This document shows positions 46,436 to 64,000 of a DNA stretch of 64,000 nt, one piece after another. This DNA is from an uncultured Candidatus Saccharibacteria bacterium. Lineage in GTDB: Bacteria > Patescibacteriota > Minisyncoccia > UBA6257 > 2-01-FULL-56-20. The translations under genes were made by a program, and so were the position numbers. Numbering within the stretch: position 1 is the first letter of the stretch; the number at the start of each line of letters is the position of its first letter. Location of the stretch: the NCBI GenBank assembly GCA_964360585.1, contig CAYHXC010000004.1, positions 15,366 through 79,365 of the forward strand. The letters are read 5' to 3'. The notes beneath the pieces were generated by a model. That model was given only the letters and a program-made list of their open reading frames with translations. It ran no database searches and was not told where the DNA came from.

Positions 46436-46628
46436 CTTTATATAATACTATAAAAAACGAGGACTTGTTTTCTGTACCCGCTCCACTTTAAAATGCTAGT
46501 TTTTTGTTTCTGTATAAACATAAAGTCTGCGCCTTTCTTTTTTTCTCCGTGCCCTCGGCAGGAATCCCCGCCTGCGCCAAGGCTTCGGCGGGCAGGGAAC
46601 CTGCATCTCAAACTCCCTCCCATGAATG

Positions 46629-46702
46629 TGTCTCCGGGCCGACTTGAACGGCCAGTCTTTGGCTTCGGAGGCCAACGTGTTATCCAATTACACTACGGAG
46701 AC
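46629..46702 (-). tRNA. tRNA-Arg (anticodon CCG)
   Basis: manual cloverleaf: acceptor GTCTCCG/CGGAGAC, D stem GTGT/ACAC, anticodon loop CUCCGAA, T arm GGCCG-TTCAAGT-CGGCC. Confidence 0.75.
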
Positions 46703-46905
46703 ATTTCAGAATCCTAGCCATTGCCTGTCCGTCCGAAGTTCCGTTTTGGCGGAATGAAGGAGGAAACGACGAGGGCGTTCCTTCGCGTAAAGCTTCGGGT
46801 GGGCAAGCGATGACTCACAAACTATACCCATCTTCTTCTGTTTTCTCAAATAAAAAACCGCGTACCTCGGGTGAGGTCGCGGCGGTTTGCGATGCGGAAA
46901 GAACT

Positions 46906-55335: not shown

Positions 55336-55830
55336 ATGGTAAAAAAAATTCTTATCTTTTTTGGTTTACTGCTTCTCGTCGGAGTACCCTCGCTTCTTTT
55401 AGCGCAAAGTTCGGTGCCGACAGTTCAAAATGCCTGTACCGTCGAAACGCCAGGTTTTCCGTACTGGGGAACAGGTCCTTCGCTTCTCCCCTGCGGAACG
55501 AATGGCGTAAACTGTCTCGAGTGCGGTTTGTGCGGCTTGCTGATGTTGGGGCAAAGGATCATCTACCTGATACTTTCCTTCCTGATTTTTATTATTGCGC
55601 CACTTCGGTTTATCTGGGGCGGCTTCCAGATTTTTATTTCCCGCGGCTCGTCAGAGATGGTGTCGCACGGCAAGAAGATAATTTACCAGACAGCGACCGC
55701 GCTCGTGATCGCCCTTCTGGCATTCGTGCTCATCCAGACGTTTTTGTGGCTTTTGGGAGGCGTGAACTTAACACAAGATCAGCGTCTTGGCTGGCCCAAC
55801 ATCAACTGTACGCGTAATCTCCGGCCATGA
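55336..55830 (+). CDS. T4SS-pilin-like (TrbC/VirB2-like) small membrane protein, paralog 1
   Basis: signal peptide, Cys-rich segment, two C-terminal TM helices with conserved A..K...Y motif. Confidence 0.5.
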   Translation: MVKKILIFFGLLLLVGVPSLLLAQSSVPTVQNACTVETPGFPYWGTGPSLLPCGTNGVNCLECGLCGLLMLGQRIIYLILSFLIFIIAPLRFIWGGFQIFISRGSSEMVSHGKKIIYQTATALVIALLAFVLIQTFLWLLGGVNLTQDQRLGWPNINCTRNLRP

Positions 55831-56297
55831 TTTCTTCTCTCATATCAGGTAAAATGAAAAAGATGAAGACAATAGTCGCCATCGCTCTCTTACTGTTATT
55901 CCTCACGCTACCACTTCCTTCTTTTGCTCAAGGAACTCCAAGTCTGGGAACAGGCACTCAAAGTCCTGGGACAGGTACTCAAACCCCCGGTATTCCCACT
56001 CCCAGTCCCGCCTTACCACTTCCCAATCTTCTCAACTGCCCCCCTCCTACCGGCCCAAATACTCCGCCGTGCTTTCTCCAGATTTTCCAGGATGTAATCG
56101 GCCGACTGCTCCTTGTTATCTATCCGCTTCTGGCCGGGATGGTATTCTATGGCGGCATGCAGATGATGTTCGCGCGGGGAAATACGGAAAAGTATAAGGC
56201 TGGTCTCAAAACCATCCAGTATGCGGTCATTGGATTTGTCGTTATAGTGCTCTCTCAAGGGCTTGGCCTTATCATAAAAAGTATCCTTGGTCTCTAG
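55827..56297 (+). CDS. T4SS-pilin-like protein, paralog 2
   Basis: signal peptide, Pro/Thr-rich linker, conserved C-terminal two-helix domain. Confidence 0.55.
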   Translation: MISSLISGKMKKMKTIVAIALLLLFLTLPLPSFAQGTPSLGTGTQSPGTGTQTPGIPTPSPALPLPNLLNCPPPTGPNTPPCFLQIFQDVIGRLLLVIYPLLAGMVFYGGMQMMFARGNTEKYKAGLKTIQYAVIGFVVIVLSQGLGLIIKSILGL

Positions 56298-56377
56298 GTT
56301 GCTATTTTGCCCGTCCCTATGGAGTGTGCTACAATAATCCAACATGGAAAGGTCGGTACATTAGTTACTGTAATGTT

Positions 56378-56761
56378 ATGAAGAATCATAAACTAATTTC
56401 CGGAGCTCTCACGTTAGTTACAGTTCTCGTTTCCCCAATGGCTGCGTTTGCTCTGCCGGAGGTGGAACCCATTGTGACCATCAATCCTGTTCCACCGCCG
56501 GAAAGTGATGCAGGTATCACAGATCTTAACGTTGTTCTCCAACTCCTTGTTAATCTCCTGGGCTATGTTCAGGCTTTGTTCTGGATTGCCGCGGTTTTCT
56601 TTGGTCTCTATGCTGCTTTTCTCTACCTCACCGCTCAAGGCGATGGTGAGAAGGTTTCAAAGGCCAACCATATGCTTATCTATGTTGTTGTGGCGGTAGT
56701 AGTGGCTGTTATTGCCTACTCCATTCCGCAGTTCGTCACTACGACGATCACCCAGCCGTAA
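56378..56761 (+). CDS. T4SS-pilin-like protein, paralog 3
   Basis: LLGYVQALFWIAAVFFGLYAAFLYLTAQGD...AYSIP; start verified at MKNHK. Confidence 0.6.
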   Translation: MKNHKLISGALTLVTVLVSPMAAFALPEVEPIVTINPVPPPESDAGITDLNVVLQLLVNLLGYVQALFWIAAVFFGLYAAFLYLTAQGDGEKVSKANHMLIYVVVAVVVAVIAYSIPQFVTTTITQP

Positions 56762-56782
56762 GTTTTTAGATACGTTCTTAAA

Positions 56783-56808
56783 AAGCCCCTTCGCGGGGCT
56801 TTTTTGGT
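56783..56808 (+). terminator. rho-independent terminator
   Basis: AGCCCCTTCGCGGGGCTTTTTT. Confidence 0.8.
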
Positions 56809-56924
56809 TGAGGCCCCCTCTTAAAAATCCTTTCTTTTTTCACGAAAGAGATTCTTGAGAGAGGTTCTTAAGGGGTGGGGAAAAGTCTTGTTCACGAGAA
56901 AACTTCGCGGTATAATCGCTAGTA

Positions 56925-57302
56925 ATGCAGATGCGCCAATTTCTCCTCGGAAGCCTCTTAATCCTTGCGACTTTGTTTTCTGTCATTCCTGTAGTCTTGG
57001 CCGTGCCCCCTGCCACACCTGGTACTGTTCCACCCTGCGTCGGTTGCCCTTTAACGAACGTGAGTCAGGTTGTGAGTTTGATAACTGGCATCGTAAATCA
57101 GATGCAGATTGTGTTCTGGACGGTGGCGGCTGGCTCGGGACTTTATGCCGCCTTTCTTTTTATTCGCGGCGGCAGTAATACCGAATCCTTGAAGCAGGCC
57201 AAGAATCAGATCCTCTACACCGTGATCGCGGTTATTTTAGGAGTGCTGGCTTATGGTATTCCGGGAATTGTGACTGATTTTCTGAAAAACGTACGCGGAT
57301 GA
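56925..57302 (+). CDS. T4SS-pilin-like protein, paralog 4
   Basis: VNQMQIVFWTVAAGSGLYAAFLFIRGG...AYGIPGIV. Confidence 0.6.
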   Translation: MQMRQFLLGSLLILATLFSVIPVVLAVPPATPGTVPPCVGCPLTNVSQVVSLITGIVNQMQIVFWTVAAGSGLYAAFLFIRGGSNTESLKQAKNQILYTVIAVILGVLAYGIPGIVTDFLKNVRG

Positions 57303-57652
57303 TTATACATTTCTTGAGTTCCATCGTAAGTAGGTTAACCGAGAAGGCTTATGCGTATCCGCGCTTCACCGGTCCGCCGGCAGATGCCGGAGGGGCGCCC
57401 ATCAAAACCGTAAACGAGGCTCTCGGCATCATTGTCGCGGTGATTGACTTGGCGCAAGTGGTGTTCTGGATTTTGGCCGCCGGTTTTGGTCTTTATGCCG
57501 CCTATCTCTATCTTTTCGCGCGGGGGGATAAAGAGTCAGTCACCACTGCTCGGCGGATGTTGGTGTATACCGCCGTCTCAATCTTAGTTGCCTTGATCGC
57601 CTACGGTATACCGTCAATTATCGTAAATTTCGTAAATCTTGGAACACCATGA
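57299..57652 (+). CDS. T4SS-pilin-like protein, paralog 5
   Basis: VIDLAQVVFWILAAGFGLYAAYLYLFARGD...AYGIPSII. Confidence 0.6.
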   Translation: MIIHFLSSIVSRLTEKAYAYPRFTGPPADAGGAPIKTVNEALGIIVAVIDLAQVVFWILAAGFGLYAAYLYLFARGDKESVTTARRMLVYTAVSILVALIAYGIPSIIVNFVNLGTP

Positions 57653-58161
57653 TCAAGGGCTACCAGTTTCGCGTGATTTTTTTCCTCGCCACTCTTCTCG
57701 GTGTGTTGCTCATTTTCTCGCCAGCGTTTGCGGCACAGTGGGAATGTCGGTCAACCGGTCTTTCATTCTCAGACGCGGGTTTCTGTCGCTCGCAGTGCGG
57801 CGGCGTGAGCTGTGTTTGTTCCGGGTCGGCTTCGGAGTGCGGTGGCGGTAATAATCCTTTTGCGACGGATCAAACACCGTATCCCCACACCGTTGTTCCG
57901 CCGAATCCCGGTCCGGTGAATGATGTTTTCACGATGCTTGGTGTTTTAACTTCAGTGATCGAGTTGGCCCAAATTATATTTTGGATTCTGACTGTTGGCT
58001 TCGGTCTCTATGGTTCCTATCTCTATCTTTTCGCGGCGGGCAATGCGGAGAAGGCAATACAAGCGAGAAAGGTATTTCTCTACGCCGTAATTGCTGGCGT
58101 GCTGGCTATACTTTCCTACAGTATTCCGGGAATCGTCGAAAGTTTTGTTTTAGGATACTAA
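57649..58161 (+). CDS. T4SS-pilin-like protein, paralog 6 (with Cys-rich N-domain)
   Basis: signal peptide, CRSTG...CGGVSCVCSG Cys-rich, then VIELAQIIFWILTVGFGLYGSYLYLFAAGN. Confidence 0.6.
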   Translation: MIKGYQFRVIFFLATLLGVLLIFSPAFAAQWECRSTGLSFSDAGFCRSQCGGVSCVCSGSASECGGGNNPFATDQTPYPHTVVPPNPGPVNDVFTMLGVLTSVIELAQIIFWILTVGFGLYGSYLYLFAAGNAEKAIQARKVFLYAVIAGVLAILSYSIPGIVESFVLGY

Positions 58162-58166
58162 ATCAT

Positions 58167-58676
58167 ATGAAAACATTTAAAAAAATTAGCCTCGTCGCAT
58201 TTTTGCTCGTTGTGGTGGTTTTCGGATTTTTCCCGCATTTTGCCGATGCCCGTCGAGATGAGAGTAACATTTGTTTTGGAGTCGGGGATGTTGTTATCGA
58301 CCTAAATCTCCCTTGTCTTTTTGGTGGTAAGGTATGCCTCGATGCGGATCTCGCAAACGAATGTCAGCGCCTTGGTGGACGGTGGAGCGCGGTCATGCCC
58401 CAGTATATTGGTCCCGGCGATACGAATGGGCCAGTTGAGGATGTTGAAACTTTCTTAGATCTTCTGGTGTGGTTTATTAAATTCTTCCAGATTGTCTTCT
58501 GGGTTTTGACCGTTGGCTTTGGCCTCTACGCCGCCTATCTCTATCTTTTTGCGGCGGGGAGTTCGGAAAAAGCGGCCCAGGCGCGTCGGGTTTTAGGATA
58601 CACGGTTATCGCGGCGGTCGTCTCGGTTATCGCTTACTCTATTCCGAGCGTCATTGATAGTTTCTTAGCCGGGTAG
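58167..58676 (+). CDS. T4SS-pilin-like protein, paralog 7
   Basis: signal peptide, Cys-containing domain, IKFFQIVFWVLTVGFGLYAAYLYLFAAGS...AYSIP. Confidence 0.6.
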   Translation: MKTFKKISLVAFLLVVVVFGFFPHFADARRDESNICFGVGDVVIDLNLPCLFGGKVCLDADLANECQRLGGRWSAVMPQYIGPGDTNGPVEDVETFLDLLVWFIKFFQIVFWVLTVGFGLYAAYLYLFAAGSSEKAAQARRVLGYTVIAAVVSVIAYSIPSVIDSFLAG

Positions 58677-61979: not shown

Positions 61980-62032
61980 CTGTATATTGTTGATCCCGGC
62001 TCTACTTCTCGTTTTCGGTTATAAGTTTTTAG

Positions 62033-62104
62033 TGCCGGACCCCAGAGTCGAACTGGGCACGCCTGCCTCTTCAGGGCAGCGCTCTACCGATGAGCTAGCC
62101 CGGC
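62033..62104 (-). tRNA. tRNA-Phe (anticodon GAA)
   Basis: acceptor GCCGGGC/GTCCGGC (one G-U), D stem GCTC/GAGC, anticodon loop CUGAAGA, T arm CCCAG-TTCGACT-CTGGG. Confidence 0.8.
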
Positions 62105-62219
62105 AATACTACATAATGTAATTGAATTTAGTTTTATATTCAATACAGGAATGATTTGACAGTTTTATAATAAGTGTTTTACGTTTAGTTCAGCCTAGCG
62201 CAGTCGTGGAGGAAAACTC

Positions 62220-62465
62220 ATGGATACAAAAAATACGATTCCTGTTCCACCAGAGCAGAAACCAGAAGAAGATTGGCCATCCCACATCATGGAGTTGCGG
62301 AGTCAGCTGGGTATGACCCAGGAGGAGTTCGCGCATACTCTCGGAATCACGGTTGGCACGGTGAGCCGTTGGGAAAATCGATGGTTCCGCCCGAGCAAGT
62401 TGGCTCGAGCCACCATTCTGGAATTTGCCCGACGCCACGGTATCCCCATCGGTCAGGCCAAGTAG
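62220..62465 (+). CDS. XRE-family helix-turn-helix transcriptional regulator
   Basis: HTH LRSQLGMTQEEFAHTLGITVGTVSRWE; GC-rich; between tRNAs. Confidence 0.6.
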   Translation: MDTKNTIPVPPEQKPEEDWPSHIMELRSQLGMTQEEFAHTLGITVGTVSRWENRWFRPSKLARATILEFARRHGIPIGQAK

Positions 62466-62500
62466 ATTTCTACTTGGCTTTTTTATTTGTGTCCCCATTA

Positions 62501-62668
62501 GGAAGGCTCAGCATTCCTAGCTCGACCCCTAAAAAGTAAAACCGAACATGGATGCTCGGTTTTGTTCTCTCGGCATTCCCACCAGGAAGGCTGCGCATTC
62601 CTGGCCCAACTCCTCAAAAACAAAACCGAACATACATGCTCGGTTTTGCTCTCTCGGCGTTCCCACCA
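62501..62668. repeat. two tandem ~84-bp units each ending in a tRNA 3'-end-like segment (TTCCCACCAGG)
   Basis: units 62501-62584 and 62585-62668 ~85% identical; each contains hairpin AAAACCGAACAT..ATGCTCGGTTTT and CCAGGAAGGCT..GCATTCCTGG; third unit continues into a truncated tRNA 3' half (T arm CCAGGTTCGATTCCTGG on minus strand). Confidence 0.6.
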
Positions 62669-62795
62669 GGAATCGAACCTGGGTCTACTCCTTACCTGCC
62701 CGCCATTGCCTGCGCCCTCGGTAGGAAGGACAATCATTCCTACCTTGCCATCTCAAAAGAAAAACGAAGCGTGCCGCTTGATTTCTCTCTCTCGG

Positions 62796-62867
62796 TGCCC
62801 TCGGTAGGAATCGAACCTACGTCTAGAGCTTAGAAGGCTCCTATTCTTTCCACTGAACTACGAGGGC
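62796..62867 (-). tRNA. tRNA-Arg (anticodon UCU)
   Basis: acceptor GCCCTCG/CGAGGGC, anticodon stem GGAGC/GCTCT loop CUUCUAA, T arm GTAGG-TTCGATT-CCTAC. Confidence 0.8.
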
Positions 62868-63089
62868 AATTCTGGCAGGCGGGGAAGGGAGTCGTTTTAT
62901 CCATTAAACTATGGGGACTAAATGGATTTCGATTGATTCTATCGCAGAAATCAGATAACTTAAAGGGGCGTTCGGATGGTTATTTCGAAAACACAGATAT
63001 AATTCTGACTGAATTATTCCTATGCTCGGACCGTCGTCCTCCGCAGTGTTTTCTCAATAAATCCTCACTAGGGTTTTACGTAAGGTAGG

Positions 63090-63160
63090 CGGGGTGTAGT
63101 ATACCGGTAGTACGCCTGCTTTGGGAGCAGGTAGACCGAGTTCAATTCTCGGCACCCCGA
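63090..63160 (+). tRNA. tRNA-Pro (anticodon UGG), C1-G72 type
   Basis: acceptor CGGGGTG/CACCCCG, anticodon stem CCTGC/GCAGG loop UUUGGGA, T arm CCGAG-TTCAATT-CTCGG. Confidence 0.75.
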
Positions 63161-63402
63161 CTGAACGAAGTGAAGGAGGGGATGAGCGCGCAAACTGCTT
63201 TGCGCGCGTCCGGAATCGAAGCCCGCAGAGATGTGATTCGCAGTAGCGGATCACCACGAGGGGCTAGCCTAATGCCGAGTCGAGTGACTGACGACCTGCC
63301 GGCAGGCAGGCAGGGAAGAGGATAGGAGGCGATTCCCGGCTGTGCCCTTCCGTAGTTTTAACAAAGGAGGGCAGTCCGACAAGTAGTGATAAGGAGAGGG
63401 TT

Positions 63403-63474
63403 GGACGGTTAGCTCAGTGGTAGAGCATCTGCTTTACACGCAGAGGGTCGCGGGTTCAAATCCTGCACCGTCCA
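63403..63474 (+). tRNA. tRNA-Val (anticodon UAC)
   Basis: acceptor GGACGGT/ACCGTCC, D stem GCTC/GAGC, anticodon loop UUUACAC, T arm GCGGG-TTCAAAT-CCTGC. Confidence 0.8.
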
Positions 63475-63516
63475 CAGATTAGAACACTTGAATATTTCGT
63501 ATGTTATAATCTTTCT

Positions 63517-63885: not shown

Positions 63886-63940
63886 GCTCGGGGCTCCCTG
63901 CCCGCGCTCCGTCGGCCAAAGCCTTTGGCGGCGTGAGACC

Positions 63941-64000
63941 GAAACTTTACTTGTCCGGCGAAGCTTTAGCGAAGTTGGAGTGAAGGCGGGGATCCCTCGA
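63941..64000. repeat. partial copy of the 37820-37870 repeat segment (truncated by window end)
   Basis: CTTGTCCGGCGAAGCTTTAGCGAAGTTGGAG matches CTTGTCCGTCGAAGCTTTAGCGAAGTCGGAG. Confidence 0.45.

Follow-up and report, generated by a model that had tools for sequence, protein, structure and literature searches.

What kind of DNA leaves several copies of one transfer RNA (tRNA) 3′ end within 1.5 kb? The question is raised by a tRNA cluster near the end of a 64,000-nucleotide (nt) stretch of contig CAYHXC010000004.1 from an uncultured Candidatus Saccharibacteria bacterium, a member of the groundwater Patescibacteria population of Hainich. The whole 64,000-nt stretch is referred to here as the window. 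A preliminary description had read the cluster as a decayed hotspot of successive integrations. With moderate confidence, we instead regard it as an ancestral Phe-Arg/Pro-Val tRNA cluster in which several miniature, non-autonomous, tRNA-targeting insertion elements have accumulated, and not decayed prophages. Discrete insertions are present relative to three relatives, a resident tRNA-Arg gene is split and accompanied by an intact replacement, native 3′ ends are displaced at both tRNA-Arg and tRNA-Pro, and a family of such elements lies at tRNA 3′ ends in Patescibacteria. The locus is a miniature variant of a familiar theme, tRNA genes as insertion sites, and its most unusual part is a tRNA-in-tRNA replacement cassette. 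Large islands and prophages classically land in tRNA genes; the locus suggests that the same logic operates at 80–230 nt, without genes, in the small genomes of Patescibacteria.

The tRNA cluster and its repeats

ARAGORN and Rfam concur on the four tRNA genes (Phe, Arg, Pro and Val) already recognised in the cluster and on their places (Table 1). The sequence is identical across the region in three independently assembled Hainich replicates, which excludes an assembly artefact. Read on the tRNA-Arg strand, the layout is tRNA-Arg, unit 1, an 18-nt GC-rich linker, a tRNA 3′ half, unit 2, unit 3 and the terminator of an XRE regulator gene.

Tandem Repeats Finder recovers the proposed ~84-bp tandem units with a period of 84 nt (2.1 copies, 85% matches, 62500–62672). 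Their common end is TTCCTGGTGGGAA on the tRNA strand, which is the TTCCCACCAGG of the preliminary description on the plus strand. The reported repetition of the tRNA-Arg 3′ end also holds: the 14-mer TTCCTACCGAGGGC recurs exactly once, ending at 62727, against a chance expectation of ~5e-4 matches (128 kb, two strands). The 22-nt trailer pattern has 2 matches versus 0 in 100 shuffles, and GGAATG-N5-CCTTCC occurs exactly three times in 64 kb, always at this locus. Alignment of the units to tRNA 3′ ends exceeds chance, and the locus differs among relatives. The idea of an integration hotspot stands as far as the target-regeneration pattern and the insertions relative to relatives are concerned; of large integrase-encoding elements coming and going there is no sign.

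Insertions relative to three relatives

For the neighbouring PAP2 protein, the best relatives are 56–60% identical, none of them close; three loci (L136, L138 and L139) were used for the history. Contigs of two further PAP2 homologues (P0002, P0006) are too short to reach the tRNA cluster, and in two others (P0007, P0008) the cluster is not beside PAP2. The gene order tRNA-Leu, PAP2, Phe, Arg, Pro, Val is retained in all three relatives. L138 (Logan SRR28842991) represents the empty state, with tRNA-Arg(UCU), a 50-nt spacer and tRNA-Phe. L136 (chromosome OZ246418.1) has tRNA-Arg(UCU), one 81-nt unit of the window type and the conserved spacer. L139 (Hainich well H41) has an intact tRNA-Arg(UCU), a terminator, a different XRE gene, the conserved spacer and tRNA-Phe. 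The comparison with relatives that had been proposed as a check therefore shows discrete insertions at tRNA 3′ ends.

The L139 tRNA-Arg(UCU), which reads GTCCCCATAGTTTAATGGACAAAACGACTCCCTTCTAAGGAGTAGATCTAGGTTCGATTCCTGGTGGGGACA, is the intact counterpart of a broken tRNA in the window. Global alignment to L138 and L139 runs through the leader and tRNA nt 1–35, a 189-nt gap, the remaining 37 nt, a 168-nt gap holding two units, and then the native TGGGGACA with its flank. In total the window has three clean insertions relative to L139: 189 nt, two 84-nt units, and ~228 nt after tRNA-Pro.

A tRNA gene within a tRNA gene

The resident tRNA-Arg(UCU) is cut between C35 and U36 (CTTC|TAA) by the 189-nt insertion, with ...CTCCCTTC and TAAGGAGT on either side. 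A truncated tRNA 3′ half had been noticed at 62655–62700 and taken for a leftover attachment-site fragment. The sequence is present, but it is the 3′ half of this split gene (62658–62694), and the corresponding 5′ half (62884–62918) had been overlooked. ARAGORN in intron mode calls the split gene independently (c[62656,62918], 189-nt intron); its intron boundary is one base off, hence the name Thr, and homology to L138 and L139 gives Arg(UCU). Across all loci this mode yielded mostly false chimeras of adjoining tRNAs and is used as evidence for the window alone. The split gene escapes standard tRNA finders, and such loci may be open to misannotation.

The insert carries an intact tRNA-Arg(UCU), of a sequence type unlike the resident's, together with its own unit 1. 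This is the sole unbroken tRNA-Arg(UCU) within the window. Because the insert brings a complete tRNA-Arg(UCU), the disrupted function is supplied by the insert itself. The insert ends are identical at 9 of 11 positions as an inverted repeat and can pair over 11 nt right at the junctions, where the host tRNA is not reconstructed. The two junctions share no core, and a scan for open reading frames (ORFs) found none of recombinase size in the inserts.

The arrangement recurs in L024, from an unrelated uncultured bacterium, where CCTGCCCGCCATAGCCTGA, an intact tRNA-Arg(UCU) and TAGGCGATGGCAGGCGGG interrupt the D-loop of a resident tRNA-Arg(UCU). These termini are the window's two terminal sequences (11/11 and 17/18 positions), swapped relative to the cargo. 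The tRNA-Arg types are swapped as well: the insert type in the window is the resident type in L024. No target-site duplication flanks the insert in either. A cargo-less pair of the same termini, 30 nt long, lies at 46567–46596 of the window, exactly between C56 and G57 of a tRNA-Arg remnant. The tRNA-in-tRNA arrangement, seen twice and with sequence types swapped, is a minimal case of an insert that destroys and replaces an essential gene.

It is very improbable that the split tRNA-Arg(UCU) still works, the 189-nt insert serving as an intron, or as the spacer of a split gene, and its complementary GC-rich ends uniting the halves for cutting and ligation, as in archaea. The halves do make a near-perfect cloverleaf with one C·A mismatch, the insert ends pair at the junctions, and the outer tRNA of L024 also forms a perfect cloverleaf. 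Two-sided changes relative to L138 occur at pairs 2–71, 13–22 and 27–43; these, however, are already in the intact L139 tRNA and hence older than the split. No bulge-helix-bulge (3-nt bulges 4 bp apart) can be drawn, since the two junctions face one another at the foot of a single unbroken 11-nt helix. The insertion point varies among the anticodon loop (window), the D-loop (L024) and the T-loop (46.5 kb). Rfam gives no group I intron match at E ≤10, and the insert is mostly tRNA plus unit 1. With an intact tRNA of that anticodon inside the insert, the outer gene is dispensable, and release of the inner tRNA by RNase P and RNase Z would cut the outer transcript.

The 30-nt palindrome belongs to a second disrupted tRNA-Arg locus (46549–46776, minus strand), with a 5′ start GCCCTCGTCGTT at 46765–46776 and an intact tRNA-Arg(CCG) at 46628–46702. 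In the remnant downstream of tRNA-Arg(CCG), the T-arm (TTC|GATT) is split by the GC-rich palindrome and is followed by CCTGCCGAGGGCAC. The motif CAGGCAATGGC of the 189-nt insert is found again at 46717–46727. In L115 (5823–5895), an apparently continuous coding sequence contains, in frame, two GC-rich palindromes of a similar kind (CCTGCCCGCC...GCAGGCGGG).

The 84-nt units after tRNA-Arg

Units 2 and 3 lie head to tail within the last ~15 nt of the resident tRNA-Arg, whose native 3′ end has moved to the distal side. The tRNA-proximal 3′-end copies (TGGGAACG, TGGGAATG) precede foreign unit DNA, and the distal-most copy retains its native last nucleotides and native flank. The pair is bounded by GATTCCTGG on one side and TGGGGACACAAAT on the other. 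The element-borne end TGGGAACG mismatches the resident 5′ strand at C3·A70. The two full units are alike at 71/84 positions, and the block of identity between unit and tRNA begins at T59 of the T-loop. The unit sequence is absent at the L139 locus, so the units are not a local duplication of ancestral DNA.

Circularly permuted, a unit consists of a core (TTCC, T-stem 3′ strand, acceptor 3′ strand), CCGAGAG, a terminator-like hairpin, a spacer, an inverted arm (T-stem 5′ strand and GGAA) and a 9-nt loop. At each junction the arm pairs with the core that follows, giving a hairpin of 7–8 bp (−7 to −11 kcal/mol) that resembles the replaced T-arm, as in CCAGGAA-TGCGCAGCC-TTCCTGG of unit 2. This hairpin, present in each repeat with a stem matching the T-stem of the adjoining tRNA, had been overlooked. 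The hairpins may have a role in transcription termination, in recombination or in both.

Five units are known, three in the window and two in OZ246418.1. All are 81–84 nt long and homologous over their whole length, unit 1 being homologous to the 81-nt units of L136 and L108. Two hairpins are retained in 5/5 units: 96.8% of cells pair versus 34–54% with a slid partner, and six pairs have changed on both sides, a covariation that rests on five related sequences and is moderate evidence. The ORF scan found no ORFs within the units, and between the repeats there are no remains of phage or island genes.

The two OZ246418.1 units (L136, L108) are 93% identical and follow two tRNA-Arg genes (UCU and GCG) 29 kb apart. 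Each of these tRNA-Args has one stem mismatch: C5·A68 in UCU (L136 8146–8219) and C50·A64 in GCG (L108 176–247). Both 3′ ends look as if they had been overwritten by a common TTCCTACCGAGGGCA.

The insertion between tRNA-Pro and tRNA-Val

The Pro-Val spacer, which had passed unnoticed as an insertion of the same family, is 241 nt long in the window versus 13–14 nt in L139 and L136, giving an element of ~228 nt. An inverted tRNA 3′-end copy, broken by a CTGC-loop hairpin, occupies 63178–63223 and is followed by a structured body. A covariance model of the 5′ module of related elements (R1, below) scores 47.6 bits at 63174–63224. The displaced native T-loop and T-stem of tRNA-Pro, CGATTCCCGGC, lie at 63330–63340 and are identical to the T-loop and T-stem 3′ strand of L139. 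A 32-nt hairpin insertion (63341–63372) parts them from the native acceptor end AGTCCGAC (63373–63380), the counterpart of the native tRNA-Pro end (GCCCGAC in L139). The native Pro-Val spacer AAGTAGTGATA persists at 63381–63391.

The tRNA-Val(UAC) of the window has an acceptor (GGACGGT), anticodon stem and T-arm unlike those of tRNA-Val in L139, L136 and L138 (GCGCGCT/GCGCCCT). This gene, too, may be a replacement allele.

Related elements in Patescibacteria

Species-representative genomes were scanned with the 22-nt 3′ end of the window tRNA-Arg, a sequence common to several tRNA-Arg isoacceptors and tRNA-Lys(UUU). The scan gave 119 loci, almost all in Patescibacteria. Of the 108 usable loci, 15 repeat the 3′ end directly within ≤450 nt and 14 carry it inverted (shuffled controls, 0); the other 93 tRNAs with the same 3′ end carry no such module. 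The usual order is tRNA, palindromic terminator-like hairpin, inverted tRNA-end copy, a body of 60–170 nt and direct copy. The inverted copy is often broken by a CTGC-loop hairpin, and two elements stand in tandem in L034 and in L119. Elements of this build follow Arg, Lys and Ser tRNAs in many Patescibacteria. These larger relatives of the units have a non-coding core that is conserved across many lineages, with conserved loops (CTGC in the first hairpin, GUA in the last).

Members of model R1 follow tRNA-Arg(GCG) and tRNA-Ser(UGA) in L009, occur twice in L112 and also in L070 and L123, and include the Pro-Val spacer of the window. In every member the arms are copies of the 3′ end of the adjacent tRNA. 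In L009 the inverted arm complements the 3′ strand exactly, even at the tRNA's G·U pair, and includes the discriminator complement. The two L112 elements have a similar body and carry the arm GCAGG or GTAGG according to the adjoining tRNA. As the internal arms track the target tRNA, a fixed attachment site is hard to reconcile with them; short-homology recombination with gene conversion, or a copy-based mechanism, is possible.

Could the units be functional RNA modules of tRNA transcription units (terminators, 3′-end protection or mimics of the tRNA top half), made by local or inverted duplication and kept by selection? Each unit does place a terminator-like hairpin right after the tRNA 3′ end, the hairpins covary, and the CTGC and GUA loop sequences are conserved in the larger elements. 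The inverted arm exactly complements the tRNA 3′ strand, discriminator included, and extends the palindrome through the terminator. The whole region also folds better than shuffles (z = −6.9). Against this, the L139 locus lacks the unit sequence, the native 3′ end has been moved away, its replacement does not pair fully with the resident 5′ strand, 93 of 108 tRNAs do without the module, and no Rfam family matches. We judge this explanation decidedly unlikely, and it is compatible with insertion elements, since a mobile element can terminate transcription too.

Rfam, run at E ≤10 on the window region and at gathering thresholds on 16 related loci, yields nothing other than tRNAs and one unrelated S-adenosylmethionine (SAM) riboswitch, leaving the element family uncovered.

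The XRE gene and the Xer-like recombinase

The GC-rich XRE gene of the preliminary description is borne out as an 81-aa HTH_3/XRE ORF (62220–62465) with a G+C content of ~0.50–0.53 versus 0.43–0.46 in its flanks. The protein is 70–82% identical to more than 100 YiaG/MqsA-like proteins on contigs of differing gene context, and no tRNA adjoins these homologues in the contexts examined. A gene in the same slot and orientation in L139 encodes an XRE protein just 46% identical to that of the window; at this locus the gene is absent from L138 and L136. The XRE gene is probably horizontally acquired cargo in a slot downstream of tRNA-Arg. Different XRE genes seem to have landed in the same slot, which fits a hotspot, and the slot boundaries are not sharply defined. 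At the far edge of the XRE segment, the 11-nt AATCATTCCTG is, by its resemblance, a possible remnant of a tRNA-Arg 3′ end.

All NCBIfam matches of the XRE protein are sub-threshold (MqsA-type antitoxins/YiaG-like, CTX phage RstR, and the VC1465 family "Xer recombination activation factor" at 20 bits versus a cut-off of 70) and probably reflect generic helix-turn-helix similarity. No toxin partner gene lies beside the XRE gene in the window. On the contigs of the closest XRE homologues (L205 1–506, L207 1–745), a TrmI-like tRNA m1A58 methyltransferase is encoded nearby. The direct repeats of the 84-nt units start at T59, just 3′ of A58, and the TrmI-like neighbour is probably a coincidence. It would become relevant if a reverse-transcription step were ever considered.

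The sole nearby recombinase is a 316-aa Xer-like protein (L001 12947–13897), ~1.7 kb past tRNA-Val. Its scores for the XerC, XerD, XerA and integron-integrase models all fall under the curated cut-offs (integron integrase, 107.8 versus 265 bits). In both L136 and L138, the latter with an empty site, its gene likewise adjoins that for ribosomal protein S15. Because of this synteny, the idea that the gene belongs to an element at tRNA-Val was rejected, and it is treated as resident and not as part of an island. By comparison with other elements that make use of Xer, the recombinase is a candidate for acting in trans on the elements.

Origin of the elements

A more conventional origin would be full-size, integrase-encoding prophages or islands that integrated successively at the tRNAs and were then almost wholly deleted, so that the repeats are attachment-site scars. 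A regenerated target with a displaced fragment, the classical island signature as outlined in PMC4383910, is seen here. The acquired XRE gene is still in its slot, and a tyrosine recombinase gene lies within ~1.7 kb of tRNA-Val. However, five units from two genomes share a length of 81–84 nt, full-length homology and compensated hairpins, and independent decay would not converge in this way. Phage or island gene fragments are absent between the repeats. The Xer-like recombinase is under all curated cut-offs and syntenic in L136 and the empty-site L138, and the larger relatives of the units keep a conserved non-coding core in many lineages. We consider such a decayed series of islands unlikely.

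For the favoured explanation of accumulated miniature insertion elements, the following route can be proposed. Recombination would take place within a tRNA gene, either in its terminal 15–20 nt or in a loop. The elements would rebuild their target, so that arrays could grow by repeated insertion or unequal crossing-over. The moving enzyme would be encoded elsewhere, the Xer-like recombinase being one candidate and a copy-based mechanism another. The XRE gene would be cargo that landed in the same slot.

Several points weigh against this explanation. Neither an excised form nor strain-level polymorphism was found, all Hainich H51 assemblies being identical; polymorphism was sought in 8 contigs with the window's XRE or 122-aa protein, all of them 100% identical to the window. 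A single insert, duplicated locally in tandem, could account for units 2 and 3 in place of two insertions. Even where elements of one genome are alike (L112, L009), each has inverted arms that match its own neighbouring tRNA, which a fixed attachment site does not predict. The conserved hairpin loops could reflect an RNA function instead of mobility. The distal copies in OZ246418.1 differ from the expected native tRNA ends. The PAP2 identity of the closest relatives, just 56–58%, leaves the order and age of events uncertain.

An autonomous parent element was likewise not found in viral contigs or in a metagenome scan; complete Patescibacteria genomes were not systematically scanned. In viral contigs, GATTCCTACCGAGGGCA gave 8 loci, whose model matches resembled ordinary tRNA genes at first look. 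There, GTGTAGGAATCGAAAA and the unit hairpin pattern gave chance matches only, mostly in coding-looking sequence with no tRNA nearby. The metagenome scan for CCGAGAG-N(40–52)-AGGAAT-N(5–8)-CCTTCCT gave 53 matches, 0 of them beside a tRNA and about the chance number estimated by hand.

More tentatively, the elements may form an undescribed class in Patescibacteria. They would be recombinase-less, miniature and tRNA-specialised, with inverted and direct 3′-end copies that form a hairpin like a T-arm and acceptor, and they would rebuild their target and occur in arrays. A GC-ended cassette would replace tRNA-Arg and become indispensable. The arms would perhaps be copied from the target at insertion, unlike in classical site-specific integration. 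If mobile, the elements would be the integrative counterpart of miniature transposons and would explain many odd tRNA fragments and pseudo-tRNAs in metagenome-assembled genomes. They would also offer a compact natural system for tRNA-gene recognition by a recombinase or a copy mechanism.

Comparison with known systems

Islands integrated in tRNA and transfer-messenger RNA (tmRNA) genes regenerate the target and displace a fragment, as outlined in the Islander report (PMC4383910). Like tyrosine-integrase islands in that outline, the insertions of the window supply a tRNA 3′ end and leave the native 3′ fragment at the far end as a direct repeat. The crossover falls in the last 15–20 nt from the T-loop, the regenerated target is open to further insertion, and presence or absence between relatives has its boundaries at the repeat. 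The same outline differs from the window in size (81–84, 189 and ~228 nt here, not kb-scale), in that no integrase lies inside and no cargo genes are carried (the XRE gene alone could count), and in the internal inverted arm, which here matches whichever tRNA adjoins.

Cis-mobilizable elements are kb-scale in size and derive by deletion from a known integrative conjugative element, which is able to mobilise them; tandem islands reportedly occur at the Dehalococcoides tmRNA gene. Like these elements and accretion arrays, the units are flanked by attachment sites, have no recombination genes and lie head to tail with a shared target (units 2 and 3; L034, L119). Unlike for cis-mobilizable elements, no parent element was found here in the viral contigs and the metagenome scan.

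The 189-nt cassette comes closest in behaviour to tRNA-dependent lysogeny of actinobacteriophages, in which the host tRNA gene is destroyed by integration and not rebuilt (Guerrero-Bustamante and Hatfull 2024, PMC10865867). In both, a tRNA gene is disrupted, here with an intact tRNA-Arg(UCU) at 62794–62867 inside the insert. There, the incoming DNA is an entire phage that has an integrase, and the common core is ~10 bp, whereas the cassette has 189 nt, GC-rich inverted ends and no ORF. Archaeal disrupted and split tRNA genes have also been linked to mobile elements (Sugahara et al. 2012, PMC3293823). As in those, a tRNA is broken by mobile DNA, and a working copy lies next to a fragment of the same tRNA. 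The archaeal cases differ from the window's bacterial 189-nt insert in their dependence on a splicing endonuclease and in the element involved, which is 1.8 kb long and encodes a recombinase.

Small palindromic insertion elements tolerated in genes include the Rickettsia palindromic elements, found in proteins, and the GC clusters of yeast mitochondria. The window resembles them in having GC-rich hairpin inserts in an AT-richer genome, inside an RNA gene (46567–46596) and, in L115, an ORF. It differs in that terminal repeats bracket a functional tRNA within a tRNA gene of the same anticodon. As in miniature inverted-repeat elements, terminal inverted repeats are kept between copies (window, L024, 46567–46596); unlike in those, no target-site duplication is present in the window or L024.

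Folded single-strand recombination sites are used by integrons (attC) and, with Xer recombinases, by CTX phage (attP). The imperfect inverted repeats here could likewise fold into a hairpin that mimics a double-stranded target, although a single-strand role is pure conjecture. Further likenesses are the lack of an own recombinase, arrays at one site and regeneration of the target at each insertion. Unlike integron cassettes, the elements have no attC core motifs (their arms are tRNA sequence), and the nearby recombinase is far under the integron-integrase cut-off (107.8 versus 265 bits). The target here is a tRNA T-arm, not dif or attI.

Coordinates and other features of the window

Table 1. 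Features of the tRNA cluster, in window coordinates.
Feature	Position	Strand	Description and evidence
tRNA-Phe(GAA)	62032–62104	−	Intact; ARAGORN and Rfam; 0 mismatches to L139 tRNA-Phe in global alignment; bounds the hotspot on its downstream side
Conserved spacer upstream of tRNA-Phe	62105–62145	−	TATTGAAT...ACATTATGTAGTATT; native flank; directly after tRNA-Arg in L138, after the single unit in L136; aligned to L138 and L139
Possible truncated tRNA-Arg T-loop/T-stem 3′ remnant	62146–62156	−	AATCATTCCTG; adjoins the conserved spacer; AATCATTGCT in L139; 8/10 match to TCGATTCCTG
XRE/HTH_3 gene, 81 aa	62220–62465	+	Pfam HTH_3
Bidirectional terminator-like hairpin	62456–62489		Between XRE gene and native tRNA-Arg 3′ end; terminator scan; homologous position follows the intact L139 tRNA-Arg
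Displaced native 3′ end of resident tRNA-Arg(UCU)	62490–62504	−	TTCCTAATGGGGACA; last 8 nt and downstream flank match the intact L139 tRNA (TGGGGACA|CAAAATAAAAAAGG)
Unit 3 body	62505–62573	−	CCGAGAG, terminator-like hairpin with T-run, spacer, arm CTAGGAA, loop TGCTGAGCC; Tandem Repeats Finder, terminator scan, pair counts
Element-borne tRNA 3′-end copy	62574–62588	−	TTCCTGGTGGGAATG; coordinates
Unit 2 body	62589–62657	−	Built as unit 3; arm CCAGGAA pairs with next TTCCTGG; Tandem Repeats Finder, pair counts
3′ half of split resident tRNA-Arg(UCU)	62658–62694	−	Anticodon-loop TAA to discriminator; acceptor 3′ strand element-borne (TGGGAACG); alignments to L138 and L139, ARAGORN intron mode
189-nt anticodon-loop insertion	62695–62883	−	GC-rich inverted ends CCCGCCTGCCAGAATT (62868–62883) and CAGGCAATGGCGGGCAGG (62695–62712); one clean gap versus L138 and L139
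Unit 1	62713–62795	−	CCGAGAG, terminator-like hairpin with T-run, hairpin GGTAGGAA-TGATTGTCC-TTCCTACC into GAGGGCG, second tRNA-Arg 3′-end copy (62713–62727); terminator scan, pair counts
tRNA-Arg(UCU)	62794–62867	−	Intact; acceptor GCCCTCG/CGAGGGC; ARAGORN and Rfam, 71.8 bits
5′ half of split resident tRNA-Arg(UCU)	62884–62918	−	GTCCCCATAGTTTAATGGATAAAACGACTCCCTTC; 34/35 match to the intact L139 tRNA; ARAGORN -i
Conserved leader upstream of resident tRNA-Arg	62925–62970	−	Aligns to L138 and L139
tRNA-Pro(UGG)	63090–63161	+	Intact; ARAGORN and Rfam
Insertion after tRNA-Pro	63162–63380	+	Contains GAACGAAGTGA; Pro-Val spacer length versus relatives; covariance model R1
tRNA-Val(UAC)	63403–63475	+	Intact; other allele than in relatives; ARAGORN and Rfam

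ARAGORN detected no tmRNA, and the sole Rfam sign of one is a 9.7-bit match to a T-arm; this candidate was rejected. A hammerhead-like reading of CUGAGAG-hairpin-CGUG was dropped by eye, as GAAA is not 3′ of stem II. About seven small membrane proteins (107–170 aa) with similar C-terminal halves are encoded in a run at 55336–58676, which is kept in L136, and one of them matches Pfam T4SS_pilin in a sister assembly. Past the 122-aa ORF, a GC-rich non-coding stretch runs from 63886 to 64000 and onward to L001 11668–11790. It repeats motifs of the start of the Pro-Val element (GGAGTGAAGGCGGGGAT) and of ~46800 (CGAAGCTTTAGCGAAG), and may be a further member of the element family, remote from tRNAs.

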